A DNA stretch of 64,000 bases, taken from NCBI GenBank assembly GCA_007376805.1, contig VMGX01000001.1, positions 70,461 to 134,460 on the forward strand. Direction: 5' to 3'. The position numbers were made by a program, and so were the translations under genes. This document shows positions 20,979 through 31,889 of this stretch, one piece after another. Under the pieces are notes generated by a model, which had not been told where the DNA came from, ran no database searches, and saw only the letters and a program-made list of their open reading frames with translations. Within the stretch, counting starts at the first letter, position 1, and each line of letters opens with the position of its first letter. The DNA comes from Parcubacteria group bacterium Athens0714_16. Lineage in GTDB: Bacteria; Patescibacteriota; Minisyncoccia; Phycocordibacterales; 21-14-all-36-13.

Positions 20979-23099
<2,121 letters not shown>

Positions 23100-23324: not shown

Positions 23325-24866
23325 TTAAATTACCTTATCTATATAGTAATCCACCGGAGCAAAATCATCAGTTAAAATTGGTACATCTATTTTAATTTCT
23401 TTTTTCCAAACACGTTGTAAATATTTATTCAATTCTGGGTCATTACTACTGAAAATTTGTTTTCCTGCCTGCGCAGGCAGGTCTTTTGTTTTTAATGCTA
23501 TCAAAATTATATTTTGGACTTCTTCTCCATTGTTATTTTCGCCGACTGGAAAAACATAAACGTGCGGGAAAATATTTTTATATGTTGCATATTCAGCTCT
23601 CAAAAATTTTCCACTCTCGCCTTCAATTGAAGAAATGAGATTTAAAACAACAACCCCATTTTCATTTAAAATATCATATTTTTTTTGAACCGCTTCTTTG
23701 GTAGTTAACTGATATGGAATAGAATATCGAGAACCGAAAGCGTCGCCAAAAATAACATCATACTTTTCTTTCCCTACTAAGCGGGCAAGCGTTTTATTTA
23801 AATAAACTCTCCCATCTTCATGATAAATGGTTAATCTTGGATTCTCTTTCAAATTAAAATATTTTTTTGCGAGTTCAGTAATTTTTGAATCAATTTCAAC
23901 AACATCAATCGTTGCATCGGGATATTTTAGTAAATAATCTTTTGGATATGAATACCCGGCCCCACCAAATACTAATGATTTTTTAAAATTGGGATTAAAA
24001 TATTTTGCCAAATGAAAATATTTTGAATATTCGTTTACTAATTCATCACTGTCTAAAAACATAGACGAGTGGTTTTCGTTGTTTATCCCCATTACACGAA
24101 CAATCCTGTCTGTCTTTATGTCTTTGTGTTCAGAAATTAAAATACGATTATAGGTAGTATCAACATCTATAAACCCATTTTTTTCAGATAAAGAATTGAA
24201 TTGGTTAAATGATATCCAGCTGGCCAAAACAAATATCAAGACAAATACTTTTCCTATCAAATTTCGTTTTGAATAAATTAATATGGAAACAATTATTAAA
24301 ACAAAAACTAAAATGAGCAACATCTTATTTGTTCCAAACTGTGGAATTAAATAAAAGCCGGCTAGAAATGTTCCAAATATACTTCCGGCAGTAGACAGTG
24401 CATAAAGCGTTCCTATAGTTGAACCAGATGTATCTAAACTATTTATTTTTAATTTTGCAGAATAAGGAGAAACCATCCCCAACAAAACACTTGTTGGTAA
24501 GAATAAAATTAGAGATGCTAAAACAGAGCCAGTTTTAATATTCAATGAACTGTTTTGTAAAATAAGAAGTAGCGGTTCTTTAATTAAGACAGTTAGACCA
24601 ATAAAAATTGCCGACAAAAAAACAATTAGAGACAAATTAGAAAAACTTGGATTTTTGTCTGCAATTTTTCCACCAAAATAATAGCCTAAACTTAAACTCC
24701 CCAAAATAATTCCAATTAAACTAGTCCAAACAAAAATTGATGTTCCAAAAAATGGCCCAAGCACTCTTGAACCAACAAGCTCAAACACCATAACAACGGC
24801 GCCACAAATAAACACGGATATTTCTAAAATGTATTTTTTCATTTTATTTATAAACAAAAATTGCAA
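23325..24866 (-). CDS. Membrane-anchored spermidine synthase-like (polyamine aminopropyltransferase) protein
   Basis: N-terminal ~220 aa with multiple TM helices. C-terminal methyltransferase-fold spermidine synthase motifs (VVEIDSKITELAKKYF, HEDGRVYL). Confidence 0.7.
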   Translation of the reverse strand: MQFLFINKMKKYILEISVFICGAVVMVFELVGSRVLGPFFGTSIFVWTSLIGIILGSLSLGYYFGGKIADKNPSFSNLSLIVFLSAIFIGLTVLIKEPLLLILQNSSLNIKTGSVLASLILFLPTSVLLGMVSPYSAKLKINSLDTSGSTIGTLYALSTAGSIFGTFLAGFYLIPQFGTNKMLLILVFVLIIVSILIYSKRNLIGKVFVLIFVLASWISFNQFNSLSEKNGFIDVDTTYNRILISEHKDIKTDRIVRVMGINNENHSSMFLDSDELVNEYSKYFHLAKYFNPNFKKSLVFGGAGYSYPKDYLLKYPDATIDVVEIDSKITELAKKYFNLKENPRLTIYHEDGRVYLNKTLARLVGKEKYDVIFGDAFGSRYSIPYQLTTKEAVQKKYDILNENGVVVLNLISSIEGESGKFLRAEYATYKNIFPHVYVFPVGENNNGEEVQNIILIALKTKDLPAQAGKQIFSSNDPELNKYLQRVWKKEIKIDVPILTDDFAPVDYYIDKVI

Positions 24867-25440: not shown

Positions 25441-27819
25441 TTATCTAACATTCCATCCATTTTTAAAATTTAATTTGGATGTAACGTTTTCCATTATATG
25501 ATTAACTTCTTCATCGGTGAGTGTTTTTTCCTGTGACTGAAAAACTAATCGAAACGCGTATGAAACCTTATCTTCTTTTTTATATTCATCAAATAATTTA
25601 TTTTGAACAAGTAAACTTCCGGCATTTTCTCTGACAATATTTAAAATTTCCTCACTTTTTATTTCGACTGGAACCCAAACGGCAATATCTCTCAAAACGA
25701 AAGGATATTGAGAAATGTTTTTATACTTTATTACTGTATCCTTGTAATTTTCAGAAAATTCTTTAAACAATTTTTCATATGAATTAACTTCTGGAAGTTT
25801 TTCAATTATTTCTTCCAAGTCAACTCTAAAAAAATAACTTTTTCCATCATCAAATTCTGGTGCAATAACTTTTGTTTGTAAAATTTCTAAAAGTTTATTT
25901 TTAATTTCTTCAATATAATCTTTTACATTTTTTATACCTTTTTTTCTTATACCAAAAGACAAAAAGAGTTTTTCTCCAGTTTTTTCATAAATTTTACCTA
26001 TTTCAAAAATTTTTATTTCATCAAGCGCAAGTAAATCAGAATACACTGAATTAAAATCCAAATTTTGATTGAATTGTTTTTTTGTAGTATCTCTCAGAAA
26101 TTTTTTATCAATAGCAAGTGGATTCAATAATTCAACTTCCCCACTATCAACAAATGCATAATTATAAACCTCTGAAAATCCTTCGTTTATAAAAAAGTTT
26201 TTAATTAAGTTTGAATAATAAAATATCTTGTCCTTTTTTGCATCAGAATCCTTTTTTTGTAAATCATAAGAAATATTTTCATAACCAAATATTCTTCCTA
26301 TTTCTTCTGCCAAATCTTCTTTTATTCTAATATCATTTCTATAATAAGGAATCGTTAAAACATATCTTTCTTCATTATCTGTAAATCTTCTATAACCAAC
26401 GATCGTTTTGAAAGAAAGATTATCTTCTATATTCTGAACATCAACTTTATTCCCGTTAAACCTTGAAGTATGTAAAACCTTTCCATCTCCTAAATATAAA
26501 CCACAATGATCAACGCCTTCCTGAACTTTCGTACCTTTTATAAAATCTACCGTTTCATAATGAATTTTTCCATTCCCCGTATTCGAAAAAACGATATCAC
26601 CAAATTGCGCTTCTTTTTCAGAAATTTCTTTTCCAAAAACATATTGGTCAACAGAAACTCTTGGAATTTGTATTCCTGCTTGTGCAAACAAATACGCTGT
26701 TAAAGACGAACAATCAAAATAATTTGGTGCATCAAAACTCACACTTGCGCCAAACTTATACGGCTTACCTTCAAGCGTAGGAATAATTTTTTTAATTTCA
26801 TCAAGTGGTTTTATTTTTTTGTATTCAAAACCAAGTTTATCTAAAATTTTTTCAAATTCCTTTTCTTTAATTTCAGTCCCTAAAATTTTATTAATTTCAT
26901 CAATTGAAATTCCTATTTTGTATGGATTTGATTTTCTTGGATATTCATCCAAAATATCTTCGCTCACTCTACCGCCAGATAATTCAGAAGCGAGTTGAGA
27001 CAATCTTTGCATTGCTATAAAAACCAACTCAGGACTTATGTCTGCTTCAAATCTTTTTGATGCTTCTGTTTGTAATCCTAATTTTTTAGATGTTTTTCTT
27101 ATACTCTTTGGATTAAAACTACACACAGATAAAACAATATTTTTTGTTTTTTCGTCTATACCCGTATCAATTCCTCCTTTTATTCCCGCAATATCAAGTG
27201 GCTTTTTGCCGTCGTGAATTACTAAAATTTCTTCATCCAAAATATAATTATTTTCATCTAAGGTAGTGATTTTTTCACCTTTGTCTGCAAATTTTATTGA
27301 AATATTTTTTTTGTTGTTTGTTCCGATGGCTAATTTATCAAAATCAAAAGCATGAACTGGCTGTCCTGTTTCCATCATTACAAAATTTGTTGTATCAACA
27401 ATATTATTTATTGATTTTTGTCCAAATTTTGATAATTTTTCTTTGAGCCAATCTGGTGACTCTTTTACTTGAACATCAACAACAAGTCGTTTTGTTGCTC
27501 GTCTGCATTCGTTTGGATTTTCAATTTTTAAAGTTAAAAAATCAGATGATTTTAAACTTTTGTCTGTTTGTAATTTATTTAAATCTGGAAATTTTGTTTT
27601 TAAGTCAAAAAGCATTTCTATTTCACGTGTAATCCCAAAATAAGAAAGCGAATCGTGAGCTCTGTTTGGTAATATGTCTATATCAAAAATAAAATCATCT
27701 TTGTCTTTTGAAATTTCAGAAATTTCATATGAATGCATCGTAAGAGTGTCCTTTATTTTTTCAGGACTAGGTAATTTTTCGTCAAAATATTCTTGAAGCC
27801 ACTTATAAGAAATTAACAT
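25441..27819 (-). CDS. pheT: Phenylalanine--tRNA ligase beta subunit carrying an inserted NlpC/P60 domain
   Basis: B1 (MLISYKWLQEYF), B3/4 (NIVDTTNFVMMETGQPVHAFDFDKL), B5 (ISIDEINKILG), B6 entry (LTIPYYRNDIRIKEDLAEEIGRIFGYENI). Residues ~355-470 between B5 and B6 are NlpC/P60-like (FDCSSLTAYLF...GDIVF...HCGLYLGDGKVLHTS). Confidence 0.9.
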   Translation of the reverse strand: MLISYKWLQEYFDEKLPSPEKIKDTLTMHSYEISEISKDKDDFIFDIDILPNRAHDSLSYFGITREIEMLFDLKTKFPDLNKLQTDKSLKSSDFLTLKIENPNECRRATKRLVVDVQVKESPDWLKEKLSKFGQKSINNIVDTTNFVMMETGQPVHAFDFDKLAIGTNNKKNISIKFADKGEKITTLDENNYILDEEILVIHDGKKPLDIAGIKGGIDTGIDEKTKNIVLSVCSFNPKSIRKTSKKLGLQTEASKRFEADISPELVFIAMQRLSQLASELSGGRVSEDILDEYPRKSNPYKIGISIDEINKILGTEIKEKEFEKILDKLGFEYKKIKPLDEIKKIIPTLEGKPYKFGASVSFDAPNYFDCSSLTAYLFAQAGIQIPRVSVDQYVFGKEISEKEAQFGDIVFSNTGNGKIHYETVDFIKGTKVQEGVDHCGLYLGDGKVLHTSRFNGNKVDVQNIEDNLSFKTIVGYRRFTDNEERYVLTIPYYRNDIRIKEDLAEEIGRIFGYENISYDLQKKDSDAKKDKIFYYSNLIKNFFINEGFSEVYNYAFVDSGEVELLNPLAIDKKFLRDTTKKQFNQNLDFNSVYSDLLALDEIKIFEIGKIYEKTGEKLFLSFGIRKKGIKNVKDYIEEIKNKLLEILQTKVIAPEFDDGKSYFFRVDLEEIIEKLPEVNSYEKLFKEFSENYKDTVIKYKNISQYPFVLRDIAVWVPVEIKSEEILNIVRENAGSLLVQNKLFDEYKKEDKVSYAFRLVFQSQEKTLTDEEVNHIMENVTSKLNFKNGWNVR

Positions 27820-27841: not shown

Positions 27842-28672
27842 CTAAAATTGATTTACCAATCTCAAATCTCCAGAATAAAGCATCCTTATATCTGGAATTT
27901 CGTATTTAAGCATAACCAATCTGTCTATACCAACCCCAAATGCGAAACCCTGCCACTCTTGTGGATTAATCCCACAATTTTCTAAAACCTTTGGATGAAC
28001 CATGCCCGCACCCATTATTTCTATCCACCCGGTTCCCTTACATATTGAACAACTTGAATTTATTTTTTTATCTTTTGCACATTTAAAACATGTCATATCA
28101 ACTTCAAGTCCCGGTTCAACGAATGGGAAATAACTTGGTCGAAAACGAATATCAATTTTTGCTTCAAAAAATTTTTCTAAAAATTCCTTCAAAACACCTC
28201 TAAGATTAGCGAGTGTAGTATTTGGAGTAATCATAAGTCCTTCCAATTGATAAAACTGTGCTTCATGTGTTGCATCCGTTGCTTCATATCTAAAACATTT
28301 TCCGGGAGCAATAATTTTTATAGGAGGTTTATTTTTCTCCATATATCTAATCTGAACAGGAGAAGTGTGTGTTCTTAACAACGCAGATTCTCGCAGATTT
28401 TCACGCAGATTTACGCCAATGTTTTTATCTGCATTCATCTGCGTTTTTTTATCTGCGTTTATCTGCGTCTTAATCCAAAAGGTATCCCACATATCTCGTG
28501 CTGGATGATTTGCAGGAATATTTAGTGCATCAAAATTATGATATTCATCTTCCATGTGTGGCCCATCCACTATTTCAAATCCCAAATCATCAAATATTTG
28601 AGCTATTTTCATCATTGCCAATGACAATGGATGATAATGTCCTTTTTCTTTGTTTTTGTCTTGTGGCTCCAT
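27842..28672 (-). CDS. pheS: Phenylalanine--tRNA ligase alpha subunit (short form lacking N-terminal coiled coil)
   Basis: HPARDMWDTFWI, FRPSYFPFVEPGLEVDM, GAGMVHPKVLENCGI motifs. Contains the NADK-repeat insertion. Confidence 0.85.
   Translation of the reverse strand: MEPQDKNKEKGHYHPLSLAMMKIAQIFDDLGFEIVDGPHMEDEYHNFDALNIPANHPARDMWDTFWIKTQINADKKTQMNADKNIGVNLRENLRESALLRTHTSPVQIRYMEKNKPPIKIIAPGKCFRYEATDATHEAQFYQLEGLMITPNTTLANLRGVLKEFLEKFFEAKIDIRFRPSYFPFVEPGLEVDMTCFKCAKDKKINSSCSICKGTGWIEIMGAGMVHPKVLENCGINPQEWQGFAFGVGIDRLVMLKYEIPDIRMLYSGDLRLVNQF
28384..28478. repeat. ATCTGCG iteron array in inverted arrangement (3x CGCAGAT then 4x ATCTGCG) inside pheS, translated in-frame (INADKKTQMNADKNIGVNLRENLRES)
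   Basis: Direct reading of cgcagattctcgcagattttcacgcagatttacgccaatgtttttatctgcattcatctgcgtttttttatctgcgtttatctgcg. Confidence 0.7.
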
Positions 28673-28781: not shown

Positions 28782-29147
28782 TTAATTATCTTCAATTGGT
28801 TTATTTAATTTAAATATTCTAAATTTATCTTTCAAGCCAATTTCTTGTAAATAATTAATGAAATATTTGGGTAGCGGTGATGGCCCAGCCCAAACACTTC
28901 TCTGTATCAAAATAAAACCAAGATTTATTAATTGGCGACGAAACCAATCTCTTTCCCTTTTTAAGGTATCCGGTATGTCATACACTAAAAGTAAATTTTT
29001 AGGACTATTTTCCTTCAAATCAGATGTAAATGAATTAAGATATTCTCTTTTAATATATTTTCTTTTTTTCTCACAATTGTTAGAAACAGGGATTCCTATT
29101 AAATTTACCGTTAATCCTTTATATTTAAATTTTTTTCTTTCAGCCAT
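28782..29147 (-). CDS. Small Cas2/VapD-fold-like hypothetical protein
   Basis: LLVYDIPDTLKRERDWFRRQLINLGFILIQRSVW resembles the Cas2/VapD core pattern (VYDI..RR..v.k.L..yG.r.Q.SV). No CRISPR array or cas1 nearby. Confidence 0.35.
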   Translation of the reverse strand: MAERKKFKYKGLTVNLIGIPVSNNCEKKRKYIKREYLNSFTSDLKENSPKNLLLVYDIPDTLKRERDWFRRQLINLGFILIQRSVWAGPSPLPKYFINYLQEIGLKDKFRIFKLNKPIEDN

Positions 29148-29305: not shown

Positions 29306-29572
29306 ATGAAAAACACAAATAAACAAAAAATTATTAAACGACTTAAAATTCTTGAAGGACAAATTCGTGGGCTTCAAGAAATGGTAATGAAAGATGTATA
29401 CTGTATAGATGTAATAACTCAAACATCAGCAGTAAAACAAGGTCTTTCAAATGTGGAGGATCTACTATTAGAAAATCATTTAGGAAGTTGTATTTTGAAT
29501 CAGTTAAAGTCGGGACAAACAAACAAGGCAAAGAATGAAATTCTAAAAGTTTATAAACTAAAAAGAAAATAA
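29306..29572 (+). CDS. csoR: Copper-sensing transcriptional repressor CsoR/RcnR family
   Basis: 88 aa. LKILEGQIRGLQEMVMKDVYCIDVITQTSAVKQGL with the conserved Cys and H-x-x-x-C region. Confidence 0.7.
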   Translation: MKNTNKQKIIKRLKILEGQIRGLQEMVMKDVYCIDVITQTSAVKQGLSNVEDLLLENHLGSCILNQLKSGQTNKAKNEILKVYKLKRK

Positions 29573-29573
29573 C

Positions 29574-31889
29574 ATGCATAACGAAACATATAATATAAAA
29601 GGGATGCACTGTGCCTCATGTGCTAGTACTATCGAAAAAACTTTCAAAAAAGTTGACGGTGTAAACTCCGTTGAAGTTAATTACGGAACAGAAAAGGCAA
29701 AAATATCCTTTGACCCACTAAAAACAAATCCCACTACCCTTTCCAAACATATCGAACCATTTGGATATTCATTGATTATACCAATGGCAAATACCTCGAC
29801 TTCATTTAGTGCCGGTGAAATGGGAATATCAGAAAATGAACATGCAAAACATTTGGGTCTAAATCAATCAAAAAACGAAAAACTTGCTGAATTGAAAGAT
29901 ATGAAAAATAAAGTTATATCTGTTATCCCTCTCACTATTTTTAGTAGCTTCGTATTAGCGTGGGAAACTCTTTCTCAATTTAATATTGTTCCTACTATCC
30001 CGTATTTTTGGGAAGAATTTTTTCATCATTTACTCCCAATAATGGCTACCTATACTTTGTTCGTTGTTGGAAAACCATATCTTTTAGGATTTTATCGTTT
30101 TCTTCGTTATGGCAAAGCCAATATGGATACTCTGATAGGAATCGGAACATCCGTTGCTTTTATTTTTAGTTTTATTGTTTCTGCTTTTGAAGAAAGTTTA
30201 AGATCCTTTATAAATGTAGAGCAGAGTTATTACGACGTGACAATTATTGTTATTGCCTTTATTACCCTCGGTAAATATCTTGAAGCTCGTTCAAAATTAA
30301 AAACAGGTGACGCCATAGAAAAATTATTAAATCTGCAAGCAAAAACTGCACTTGTTATTCGTGAAGGAAAAGAAGTTGAAATATCAATAGACCAAGTCCT
30401 ACACGGAGATTTGATAATTGTAAAACCAGGAAATTCAATACCTGTTGACGGTATTATTACAGATGGCACTTCCTTTATAGATGAAGCAATGATCACTGGT
30501 GAACCAATGCCCGTTTCAAAAAAAATTGGAGATGCTGTCGTGGCTGGAACAATAAACACAAATGGTTCGTTTACTTTTAGAACAACAAAAGTTGGTTCAG
30601 AAACTTTGCTTGCTAAAATAATAAAAATGGTTGAAGAAGCACAAGGAAGTAAGGCACCTATACAGGCATTAGCAGATAAAATTTCTGGCGTTTTTGTTCC
30701 AATTGTTTTAGTTTTGTCTTTTGTTTCTTTGGGACTTTGGCTTGTTGTTGGTTCAAGCTACCTCGGTTTTTCGCAAGCACTTTCTTTTGGCCTAGTTTCT
30801 TTCGTGGGCATTCTTGTTATAGCTTGCCCTTGTGCACTTGGTCTCGCAACACCAACGGCAATTATTGTTGGTGTAGGAAAGGGTGCGAGAGAAGGAATAC
30901 TTGTTAAAGACGCCGGAACACTTGAAAAACTTCACAAAGTAAATGTAATTGTTGTTGATAAAACTGGAACACTTACACGCGGGAAACCAGAACTTGTTTC
31001 AATAAAAAATCTTTCCGACAAAAGTGATGATGAACTAATATCAATTATTGCTTCTCTTGATAGTCAGTCATCTCATCCTGTCGCCCACGCAACTGTTTCC
31101 TATGCACGAGAAAAAAATATTCCATTTCAACCAGTAACTTCTTTTGAATCAATCAAAGGAAAAGGATCAAGAGGAATAATTAATGGCAATGAATATTATG
31201 TTGGCAGTCCAAAATTTTTGGCAGATTTTAATATTTCCTTTGACATTTCTTCTTTAGAAAAAGAAACATTAGAAGGTAAAACACCTGTAATTTTAATTAA
31301 AGAAAAAAATATTCTAGGCGTAGTAATGGTTGCAGATGCAATAAAACCAGAAGCTGTTGAATCAATAAAAAATCTTCATAAACTTGGTATAAAAATAATC
31401 ATGGTTACTGGAGATAATAAAAATACTGCTGATTATATTGCAAAGCAAATTGGTATTGATGAGGTTGTTGCAGAAGTAATGCCAGAAGATAAATTAAATA
31501 AAATAAAAGAATTACAGTCACAAGGAAAAATCGTTGCGATGGCTGGTGATGGAGTGAATGATGCCCCCGCCCTTGCTCAAGCTGATGTGGGTATAGCAAT
31601 GGCAACTGGGACTGACGTGGCAATAGAAACTGCTGGCATCACACTTTTGCATGGTGATATTTCAAAACTAGTAAAAGCTATTCGTTTATCCAAATTAACA
31701 ATGCGTGGGATTAAACAAAATCTTTTCTGGGCGTTTGTTTACAATATTGTAGGGATACCACTTGCAGGAGGTTTGTTTTATCCAATTTTTGGTTGGATGT
31801 TAAGTCCAGTTTTTGCCGGATTCGCAATGGCAATGTCCAGCGTATCGGTTGTCGGTAATTCACTTAGATTAAAAGTAAAAAAATTATAA
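29574..31889 (+). CDS. copA: Copper-translocating P1B-type ATPase
   Basis: N-terminal HMA MHCASCASTIE, CPC (ACPCALGLATP), DKTGTLT, TGEP, GDGVNDAPAL, MxxSS. Confidence 0.9.
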   Translation: MHNETYNIKGMHCASCASTIEKTFKKVDGVNSVEVNYGTEKAKISFDPLKTNPTTLSKHIEPFGYSLIIPMANTSTSFSAGEMGISENEHAKHLGLNQSKNEKLAELKDMKNKVISVIPLTIFSSFVLAWETLSQFNIVPTIPYFWEEFFHHLLPIMATYTLFVVGKPYLLGFYRFLRYGKANMDTLIGIGTSVAFIFSFIVSAFEESLRSFINVEQSYYDVTIIVIAFITLGKYLEARSKLKTGDAIEKLLNLQAKTALVIREGKEVEISIDQVLHGDLIIVKPGNSIPVDGIITDGTSFIDEAMITGEPMPVSKKIGDAVVAGTINTNGSFTFRTTKVGSETLLAKIIKMVEEAQGSKAPIQALADKISGVFVPIVLVLSFVSLGLWLVVGSSYLGFSQALSFGLVSFVGILVIACPCALGLATPTAIIVGVGKGAREGILVKDAGTLEKLHKVNVIVVDKTGTLTRGKPELVSIKNLSDKSDDELISIIASLDSQSSHPVAHATVSYAREKNIPFQPVTSFESIKGKGSRGIINGNEYYVGSPKFLADFNISFDISSLEKETLEGKTPVILIKEKNILGVVMVADAIKPEAVESIKNLHKLGIKIIMVTGDNKNTADYIAKQIGIDEVVAEVMPEDKLNKIKELQSQGKIVAMAGDGVNDAPALAQADVGIAMATGTDVAIETAGITLLHGDISKLVKAIRLSKLTMRGIKQNLFWAFVYNIVGIPLAGGLFYPIFGWMLSPVFAGFAMAMSSVSVVGNSLRLKVKKL

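Follow-up and report, generated by a model that had tools for sequence, protein, structure and literature searches.

An NlpC/P60 cysteine-peptidase domain nested in the B5 domain of the phenylalanyl-tRNA synthetase beta subunit of a Parcubacteria bacterium

We analysed a 64,000-nucleotide stretch of the genome of Parcubacteria group bacterium Athens0714_16 (contig VMGX01000001.1, positions 70,461 to 134,460; hereafter the window), in which pheT, the gene for the beta subunit of phenylalanyl-tRNA synthetase (PheRS), carries within its reading frame a complete NlpC/P60 cysteine-peptidase domain. The gene for the alpha subunit, pheS, is located 22 bp upstream of pheT, and a gene for a C39-like cysteine peptidase (C39_2) is located 9 bp downstream. 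With gyrB at 20979..23096, the order of genes in the window is pheS, pheT, C39_2, one extra gene, and gyrB. The 792-residue open reading frame (ORF) scores 424.2 bits with TIGR00472, the NCBIfam equivalog model of bacterial PheT, against a cut-off of 402.65. Pfam recognizes B3_4, NLPC_P60, B5 (in two stretches), tRNA_synthFbeta (the B6/7 core, residues 529-614), and FDX-ACB, and the domains are arranged in the order B1, B3/4, N-terminal half of B5, NlpC/P60, C-terminal half of B5, B6/7, and B8. The AlphaFold2 (AF2) model of the whole PheT has a predicted local distance difference test score (pLDDT) of 92.2, and Foldseek matches it to bacterial PheRS beta chains with E values of 1e-52 to 1e-49. 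A database entry from the same bacterium (P0264) is 100% identical to the window PheT.

The nested domain was recognized by profile, structure prediction, and fold comparison alike, which bears out the original prediction of an in-frame NlpC/P60 domain in PheT. The peptide quoted there, YKFGASVSFDAPNYFDCSS...NIEDNLSF, is the translation of 26410..26760 on the minus strand and falls within the pheT ORF. The Pfam family NLPC_P60 (PF00877) matches residues 351-478 over its full profile (1-105 of 105) with an E value of 1.1e-20 and 74 bits against a gathering score of 23, which is far above chance, and places the segment in the family as had been claimed. NCBIfam adds partial matches over residues 368-454 to the p60, RipA, RipB, RipC, and MepS types of wall hydrolases. 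The catalytic Cys and His are found where they had been proposed, namely at Cys370 and His438, and a third triad residue is His450; the codons of all three were located. The domain has the papain-like alpha+beta fold, is superposable on solved C40 enzymes, and presents, in the order expected of C40 members, the Cys at the N-terminus of a helix (C370), the His (H438), and the third polar residue (H450).

The placement of the domain had to be revised. It had been put between B5 and the B6/B7 core, and it is nested within the B5 hairpin, as seen from the split Pfam B5 match, the alignment with E. coli PheT, and the AF2 model. The better of the two Pfam B5 stretches covers residues 467-513 (profile positions 27-67). 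In the alignment with E. coli PheT, the window protein reads ...DKLGFEYKKI, then ~147 residues, then ERYVLTIPYYRNDIRIKEDLAEEIGRIFGY, and the insert stands in for a B5 beta-hairpin turn of ~4 residues. The segment LTIPYYRNDIRIKEDLAEEIGRIFGY, which had been read as the start of the B6/B7 core, is the C-terminal half of B5 (LTIPYYRNDIR...). We modelled the B5[NlpC/P60] module separately (residues 296-525, alignment of 114 sequences), which gave a pLDDT of 94.2 and a predicted template modelling score of 0.90; the model shows a compact alpha+beta domain flanked by the B5 strands 332-336 and 485-489. When the whole PheT model was compared with known folds, NlpC/P60 structures matched only as separate local hits, and none of the PheRS beta chains among the Protein Data Bank (PDB) fold matches aligns over the insert. 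Judged by the E. coli alignment and the solved PheRS structures, the segment is thus additional to PheT and not one of its canonical domains. A complete NlpC/P60 domain is nested at the tip of the B5 beta-hairpin, and both B5 halves still form a normal B5 domain with its acidic alpha-interface motif. The features are listed in Table 1.

Table 1. Positions of the PheRS genes, their domains and catalytic codons, the C39-like gene, and related fusion genes. Coordinates refer to the window unless a locus is named.
Feature	Position	Strand	Basis or remark
pheT, PheRS beta subunit, 792 aa	25441..27819	-	ORF, TIGR00472, Pfam
B3/4 (editing) domain, residues 105-282	26974..27507	-	Pfam B3_4, E 6.3e-59
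B5 N-terminal half, residues 300-336, YKIGISIDEINK...LGFEYKKI	26812..26922	-	ends in first strand of B5 hairpin
Nested NlpC/P60 (MEROPS C40) papain-like cysteine hydrolase domain, residues ~337-483	26371..26811	-	
Catalytic nucleophile Cys370 codon (FDCSS)	26710..26712	-	codon checked
Catalytic His438 codon (VDHCG)	26506..26508	-	codon checked
Third triad residue His450 codon (VLHTS)	26470..26472	-	codon checked
B5 C-terminal half, residues 484-515, ERYVLTIPYYRNDIRIKEDLAEEIGRIFGYEN	26275..26370	-	Pfam B5, best stretch
B8 / FDX-ACB anticodon-binding domain, residues 703-792	25444..25713	-	Pfam PF03147, E 2.5e-23
pheS, PheRS alpha subunit, 276 aa	27842..28672	-	Pfam tRNA-synt_2d, E 1.9e-97
Cytosolic Peptidase_C39_2-type papain-like cysteine peptidase, 195 aa	24844..25431	-	Pfam PF13529
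PheS+FDX-ACB fusion genes	L001:6856-8004, L003:6862-8004, L088:3853-5004, L090:3829-5004		
Unit-C39 fusion genes	L086:3598-4779, L091:6001-7194		

The closest known enzymes are the NlpC/P60 DL-endopeptidases, represented by C. difficile Acd24020 (7cfl), B. subtilis CwlO and LytE, E. coli MepS/Spr, M. tuberculosis RipB, and B. cereus BCE_2878 (3h41), the last of which we take to be a YkfC-type enzyme. The insert shares their fold, motifs, and Cys-His-His triad at 33-38% identity. Unlike them, it has neither a signal peptide nor a cell-wall-binding domain and is nested in a domain of a cytosolic aminoacyl-tRNA synthetase (aaRS), and it has a family-specific extension of 20-40 residues between the GDxVF strand and the strand of the catalytic His. 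The export signal and cell-wall-targeting module typical of wall hydrolases were not found, the NlpC/P60 domain being internal to cytosolic PheT. Compared with the canonical PheRS beta chains of T. thermophilus (1pys/2iy5), S. haemolyticus (2rhs), and E. coli (3pco), the window PheT likewise contains B1, B3/4, B5, B6/7, and B8, adjoins pheS, and keeps the acidic motif of B5 and most residues at the E. coli editing-site positions. It differs from them in having ~147 extra residues in the B5 hairpin and in lacking B2. The OB-fold domain B2 (tRNA_bind) gave no PF01588 match in PheT, and the E. coli alignment has a gap at about residues 40-150; this gap after PheT residue ~40 (N-terminal part, 27685-27819) corresponds to the missing B2, which most relatives lack as well. 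A few relatives of ~900 residues (P0303, P0319, L010) have both B2 and the NlpC/P60 insert. The window PheS is also short, without the N-terminal coiled coil.

The same architecture is widespread. A genome scan with two peptide patterns, one genome being taken per species, found 182 stretches encoding relatives, of which 80 were kept. By name, these are either uncultured bacteria or members of Patescibacteria/Paceibacterota lineages such as Campbell-, Taylor-, Nomura-, Yonath-, Lloyd-, and Terrybacteria. PheT with the B5[NlpC/P60] unit is present in all 80 loci, with pheS upstream wherever the upstream sequence is covered. The 120 homologues listed, with identities of 44-82%, all share this Pfam architecture, and each is called 'C40 family peptidase' or 'phenylalanine--tRNA ligase beta subunit-related protein' by NCBI. 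At E<=1e-30, a B5[NlpC/P60] profile run against 1.84 billion representative proteins hit 182 representative clusters; over 100 of these are PheT proteins of 760-840 residues with the unit at about residues 290-530. The nested NlpC/P60 domain is a genuine, ancient, and selectively maintained trait shared by the Paceibacterota/Parcubacteria, which are ultra-small bacteria of the candidate phyla radiation (CPR).

The entry P0002, from an ENA contig of 18 kb, is a truncated ORF of 83 residues with 88% identity to the first half of the window insert; it reflects fragmentation of the gene call or, alternatively, disruption of the copy in a close relative. On a JGI contig (L087:4696-8056), pheS, pheT, and further genes are broken up into short ORFs, probably by frameshift sequencing errors, and the C39_2 gene follows. 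The opposite strand of this contig carries an ATE_C/Acetyltransf_6 gene; the ATE family consists of aminoacyl-tRNA-dependent transferases.

Conservation was examined in an alignment of ~330 B5[NlpC/P60] sequences (324 distinct, the sets from different sources overlapping). The catalytic Cys and the catalytic His are each kept in 327 of 330 sequences (99%), and the third triad residue is His in 309 (94%), the remainder being mostly Q, D, N, or Y. In the PheT alignment, the mean identity to the window is 0.56 for the insert, 0.50 for B3/4, 0.33 for B6/7, and 0.58 for B8, which puts the insert on a par with the essential domains. Against the three closest genomes (L005, L056, and L006), the ratio of nonsynonymous to synonymous substitution rates (dN/dS) is lower for the insert (0.05-0.09) than for the other parts of the gene, namely B1-B3/4 (0.09-0.12) and B6/7-B8 (0.21-0.25). 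Purifying selection on the insert is at least as strong as that on the core synthetase domains.

These data bear on two readings in which the domain has no catalytic job. The first is a neutral, selfish, or artefactual insertion, be it a recent mobile or intein-like domain, a decaying remnant, or a chimeric assembly. The local G+C content, which rises to 0.31-0.34 over the insert from ~0.25 in the flanks, could be taken as its trace, yet in an AT-rich genome a coding segment under strong conservation is expected to be richer in G+C. The low dN/dS together with the conservation excludes a degenerate, neutral, or selfish insertion, and the recurrence of the architecture in all 120 homologues listed and 80 independent loci from many independent samples excludes an assembly artefact; moreover, the Pfam matches include neither an intein nor a homing-endonuclease family. 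We consider this reading exceedingly improbable. Of the three explanations offered by the original prediction, the degenerate structural insertion and the selfish insertion thus find no support, the triad being 99% kept in ~330 sequences and the trait being lineage-wide, and the enzymatic ('moonlighting') one survives.

The second is a structural, docking, or regulatory element, which would stabilize the alpha/beta interface of a PheRS that has neither B2 nor the alpha coiled coil, or bind a ligand or a partner such as the C39-like protein. Catalytically silent NlpC/P60 domains such as RipD exist, and RipD is among both the NCBIfam and the fold-comparison matches of the insert. The reduced state of this PheRS (no B2, a PheS of 276 residues) and the few family members that lost the Cys or His also fit such a role. 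However, the near-complete retention of the Cys and His and the 94% retention of the third residue, across sequences that are just 40-55% identical, are unexpected for a structural element, and we regard a role without catalysis as very unlikely.

The acidic motif of B5 is well kept in full-length relatives (D496 in 185/185, D502 in 164/185, E505 in 163/185, and E506 in 162/185); according to UniProt/HAMAP annotation, these residues bind the Mg2+ shared with the alpha subunit. In the B3/4 domain, we take H265, E334, T354, and A356 of E. coli PheT to be the editing-site residues. Among full-length relatives, the H265 position is kept in 175/175 and the T354 position in 168, the A356 position is Ala or Ser, and the E334 position is Glu in 136/175 and Ser in 37/175. 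The window belongs to the latter group: it keeps H, T, and A at the positions of H265, T354, and A356, and has Ser231 (27127-27129, minus strand) at that of E334. The editing capacity of this clade may differ. As a general explanation of the insert, the replacement of a dead editing site was rejected, since the H265, T354, and A356 positions are kept nearly everywhere and E334 in 136/175.

The PheS of the window has a low-complexity insertion, QINADKKTQMNADKNIGVNLRENLRESA, between DTFW and LLRTHTS (28382-28465, minus strand), which is made of short tandem DNA repeats with periods of 10, 12, and 24. Its length varies among the closest relatives; it is longer in L005 and L006 and absent in L007, L030, L041, and E. 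coli.

The unit also occurs outside PheT. When the insert segment alone was searched, the closest matches were Parcubacteria proteins of ~220 residues that are not PheT and align end-to-end with window residues ~298-515. This free-standing unit keeps the flanks derived from B5, namely YRVGLS...G(L/F)xY at the N-terminus and R(Y/F)VVEIPxD(R/K)x(E/D)LR at the C-terminus. A profile search gave 488 free-standing-type proteins at E<=1e-5, mostly of 190-240 residues, some of which are named 'PheRS subunit beta' by their source. Compared with the full-length forms, the N-terminal half of B5 is ~12 residues shorter and the acidic motif decays, position 502 being N, K, or A and position 505 mostly K. 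Only one of 113 free-standing units has a 15-residue window with hydrophobicity above 1.8. One seemingly free-standing protein with a good B5 (P0091) derives from a full-length pheT that is broken by a frameshift, on a contig with several fragmented genes, from which it follows that some short 'free-standing' database entries are gene fragments. The seven free-standing contexts examined (L001-L004 and L088-L090) are genuine.

In these seven loci, the gene of the free-standing unit overlaps by 4 bp the end of a gene of 380-391 codons, whose product is the PheS catalytic core fused to the FDX-ACB (B8) anticodon-binding domain. The PheS+B8 fusions of L001, L003, L088, and L090 score 239-249 bits with TIGR00469 (pheS_mito), just under its cut-off of 258, and do equally well, at 257-261 bits, with the NCBIfam model SrmL ('PheS-related mystery ligase'), whose cut-off is 300. 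Like the mitochondrial monomeric PheRS (human FARS2, 3cmq/3tup), they combine the PheS core and FDX-ACB in one chain; unlike it, they are bacterial, fall below the TIGR00469 cut-off, and are followed by a retained B5[NlpC/P60] gene that is absent in mitochondria. The order at free-standing loci is PheS derivative, unit, (C39_2), gyrB, which is the synteny of the window, and a rough neighbour-joining tree without support values places the main free-standing clade within the full-length forms. The simplest history is a reduction in place of an insert-bearing pheT; for B8 to end up on PheS, a rearrangement or a replacement would be required. B5[NlpC/P60] behaves as a separable unit, which is kept where the rest of the beta subunit has been lost at that locus.

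The C39-like protein encoded next to pheT matches PF13529 with an E value of 4.5e-15 and 56.9 bits against a threshold of 24. Among 55 homologues, Q12, C26, and H142 are 100% conserved and D/E163 is conserved in 91%; the papain-like Gln/Cys/His/Asp set is intact. On reading the sequence, no signal-peptide-like N-terminus is seen; the median maximum 15-residue hydrophobicity of 54 homologues is 1.34, and nine exceed 1.8. A sequence search of the C39-like protein against the PDB gave insignificant hits only (E 0.17-0.66), including Nostoc Alr0975, which we take to be a phytochelatin-synthase-like enzyme and which is a hint at most. Of 73 informative loci, 48 have a C39-like homologue downstream on the same strand; it is adjacent in 36 of them and overlaps in 13. 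In L088-L090, such a gene likewise comes after the free-standing unit. The partner is common yet dispensable, since L056, the closest relative of the window, has no C39 gene. In P0121, P0112, and P0235, the unit and the C39-like domain form one protein of ~395 residues. On two of the contigs with such a fusion, the gene is away from pheS and beside genes for Peptidase_S11, Glycos_transf_4, and CAP proteins, with MurG-type genes as well in L091. Glycos_transf_4 is the family that includes MraY.

We favour, with moderate confidence, the reading that the nested domain is a cytoplasmic amide or peptide hydrolase, probably gamma-glutamyl-specific as its closest relatives are, which works with the C39-like enzyme on wall-derived or precursor peptides and has B5 as its folding and expression scaffold. 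The domain is predicted to be active, as a cytoplasmic thiol hydrolase that serves a separate function. Cys370 would attack the substrate, His438 would act as the base, and His450 would orient it. The bond cleaved would most likely be a gamma-glutamyl-type or peptide amide, for example in cell-wall-derived or precursor peptides. The B5 domain of PheRS would serve for folding and expression, and the nested domain would take no part in tRNA charging. As the B3/4 editing-site positions, taken as above, are mostly intact, no substitute editing site is needed. A job independent of the synthetase reaction is further argued by the decay of the alpha-docking motif once the unit is free, and by the unit-C39 fusions that stand away from pheS among cell-wall genes. 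The lineage-wide presence of the insert, the selection on it, the autonomy of the unit, and the conserved and catalytically complete C39-like partner also speak for the favoured reading.

Several points weigh against this reading. A DL-endopeptidase in the cytoplasm risks destroying cell-wall precursors, there is no rationale for building a peptide hydrolase into an aaRS, and the unit is still translationally coupled to PheRS genes in two different architectures. The cell-wall neighbourhood of the fusion proteins comes from two short contigs in compact genomes. Furthermore, B5 touches the alpha catalytic core as well as the B3/4 editing domain, being located between the two (10.1101/067587; PMC12449066), hence the insert could be close to where the tRNA 3' end passes; this would favour a role linked to PheRS.

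Such a role, the main rival, would be the hydrolysis of mischarged aminoacyl-tRNAPhe or of the aminoacyl-adenylate at a second or replacement proofreading site, or an aminoacyl transfer via a Cys370 thioester. The free-standing B5[NlpC/P60] would then represent a monomer-type PheRS's minimal beta subunit, from which B3/4 has been lost. Besides the location of B5, it would account for the persistent translational coupling of the unit to PheRS genes, for its retention exactly where B3/4 is lost, and for the Glu-to-Ser change at the E334 position in the clade of the window. Nevertheless, the other three editing-site positions are kept in nearly all full-length forms and E334 in 136/175, and the full DL-endopeptidase motif set is kept, at the identity given above, and nothing in it points to an adaptation to nucleotide or tRNA substrates. 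In free-standing forms the acidic motif for docking to alpha is degraded, the fusion proteins are away from pheS, and the C39-like partner is left unaccounted for. We consider chemistry on PheRS intermediates or products unlikely. A more specific proposal appears unlikely to us as well: that the unit and its C39-like partner carry out PheRS-coupled thiol catalysis on the aminoacyl-adenylate or aminoacyl-tRNAPhe, and that the unit is also the minimal beta subunit of a CPR monomer-type PheRS which arose independently of mitochondria. If true, it would represent a new class of aaRS-associated proofreading or aminoacyl-transfer chemistry using a papain-like Cys-His triad.

A hydrolase joined to a ligase is known from glutathionylspermidine synthetase/amidase and trypanothione synthetase, in which a terminal CHAP amidase undoes the reaction of the ATP-dependent ligase to which it is attached. 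The PheT domain differs in being nested and in belonging to the p60 branch and not to CHAP. An anti-phage defence reading was dropped, as the PADLOC defence-system models gave no match for PheT, C39_2, P0121, or P0008. In the full-text literature, we found no description of NlpC/P60 in PheRS, of the free-standing unit, or of bacterial PheS+B8 fusions, and no paper on a bacterial monomer-type PheRS in CPR. The sequences and the architecture are already visible in automatic annotation; it is the description of the feature itself that was not found. While aaRSs often gain extra domains, a wall-hydrolase-type cysteine peptidase with intact catalytic residues in a core PheRS domain is apparently undescribed, and this one is fixed across a major CPR lineage under strong selection. 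The PheS+B8 fusions resemble a bacterial equivalent of the monomeric PheRS of mitochondria. The family offers a system for asking what a cytoplasmic NlpC/P60 and C39 pair does in organisms of minimal metabolism, whether PheRS fidelity or products are coupled to that pair, and how a heterotetrameric aaRS shrinks to a monomer. It also matters for annotation, since the free-standing units are variously called wall hydrolases or PheRS beta chains.

Other genes surround the pheST operon in the window. The extra gene before gyrB (23325..24866, minus strand) encodes a protein of 513 residues with a hydrophobic, membrane-like N-terminal half, as read from its sequence, and a spermidine-synthase-like domain. 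This gene shares 23 bp with the end of the C39_2 gene and is kept in the closest relative L056 only, where it directly follows pheT with no C39_2 gene between them. Just upstream of pheS (28782-29147, minus strand) lies a gene for a PaaX_M/Cas2-like protein of 121 residues (E 3.2e-12; the Cas2 match is weak), a homologue of which was found in the closest relative L005 only. As both genes are present only in closest relatives, they were rejected as members of the unit. Further upstream of the operon, on the opposite strand (29306-31889, plus strand), a gene for a CsoR-type metal-sensitive repressor is followed by one for a heavy-metal P-type ATPase with an HMA domain, which together make up an ordinary copper-export pair.

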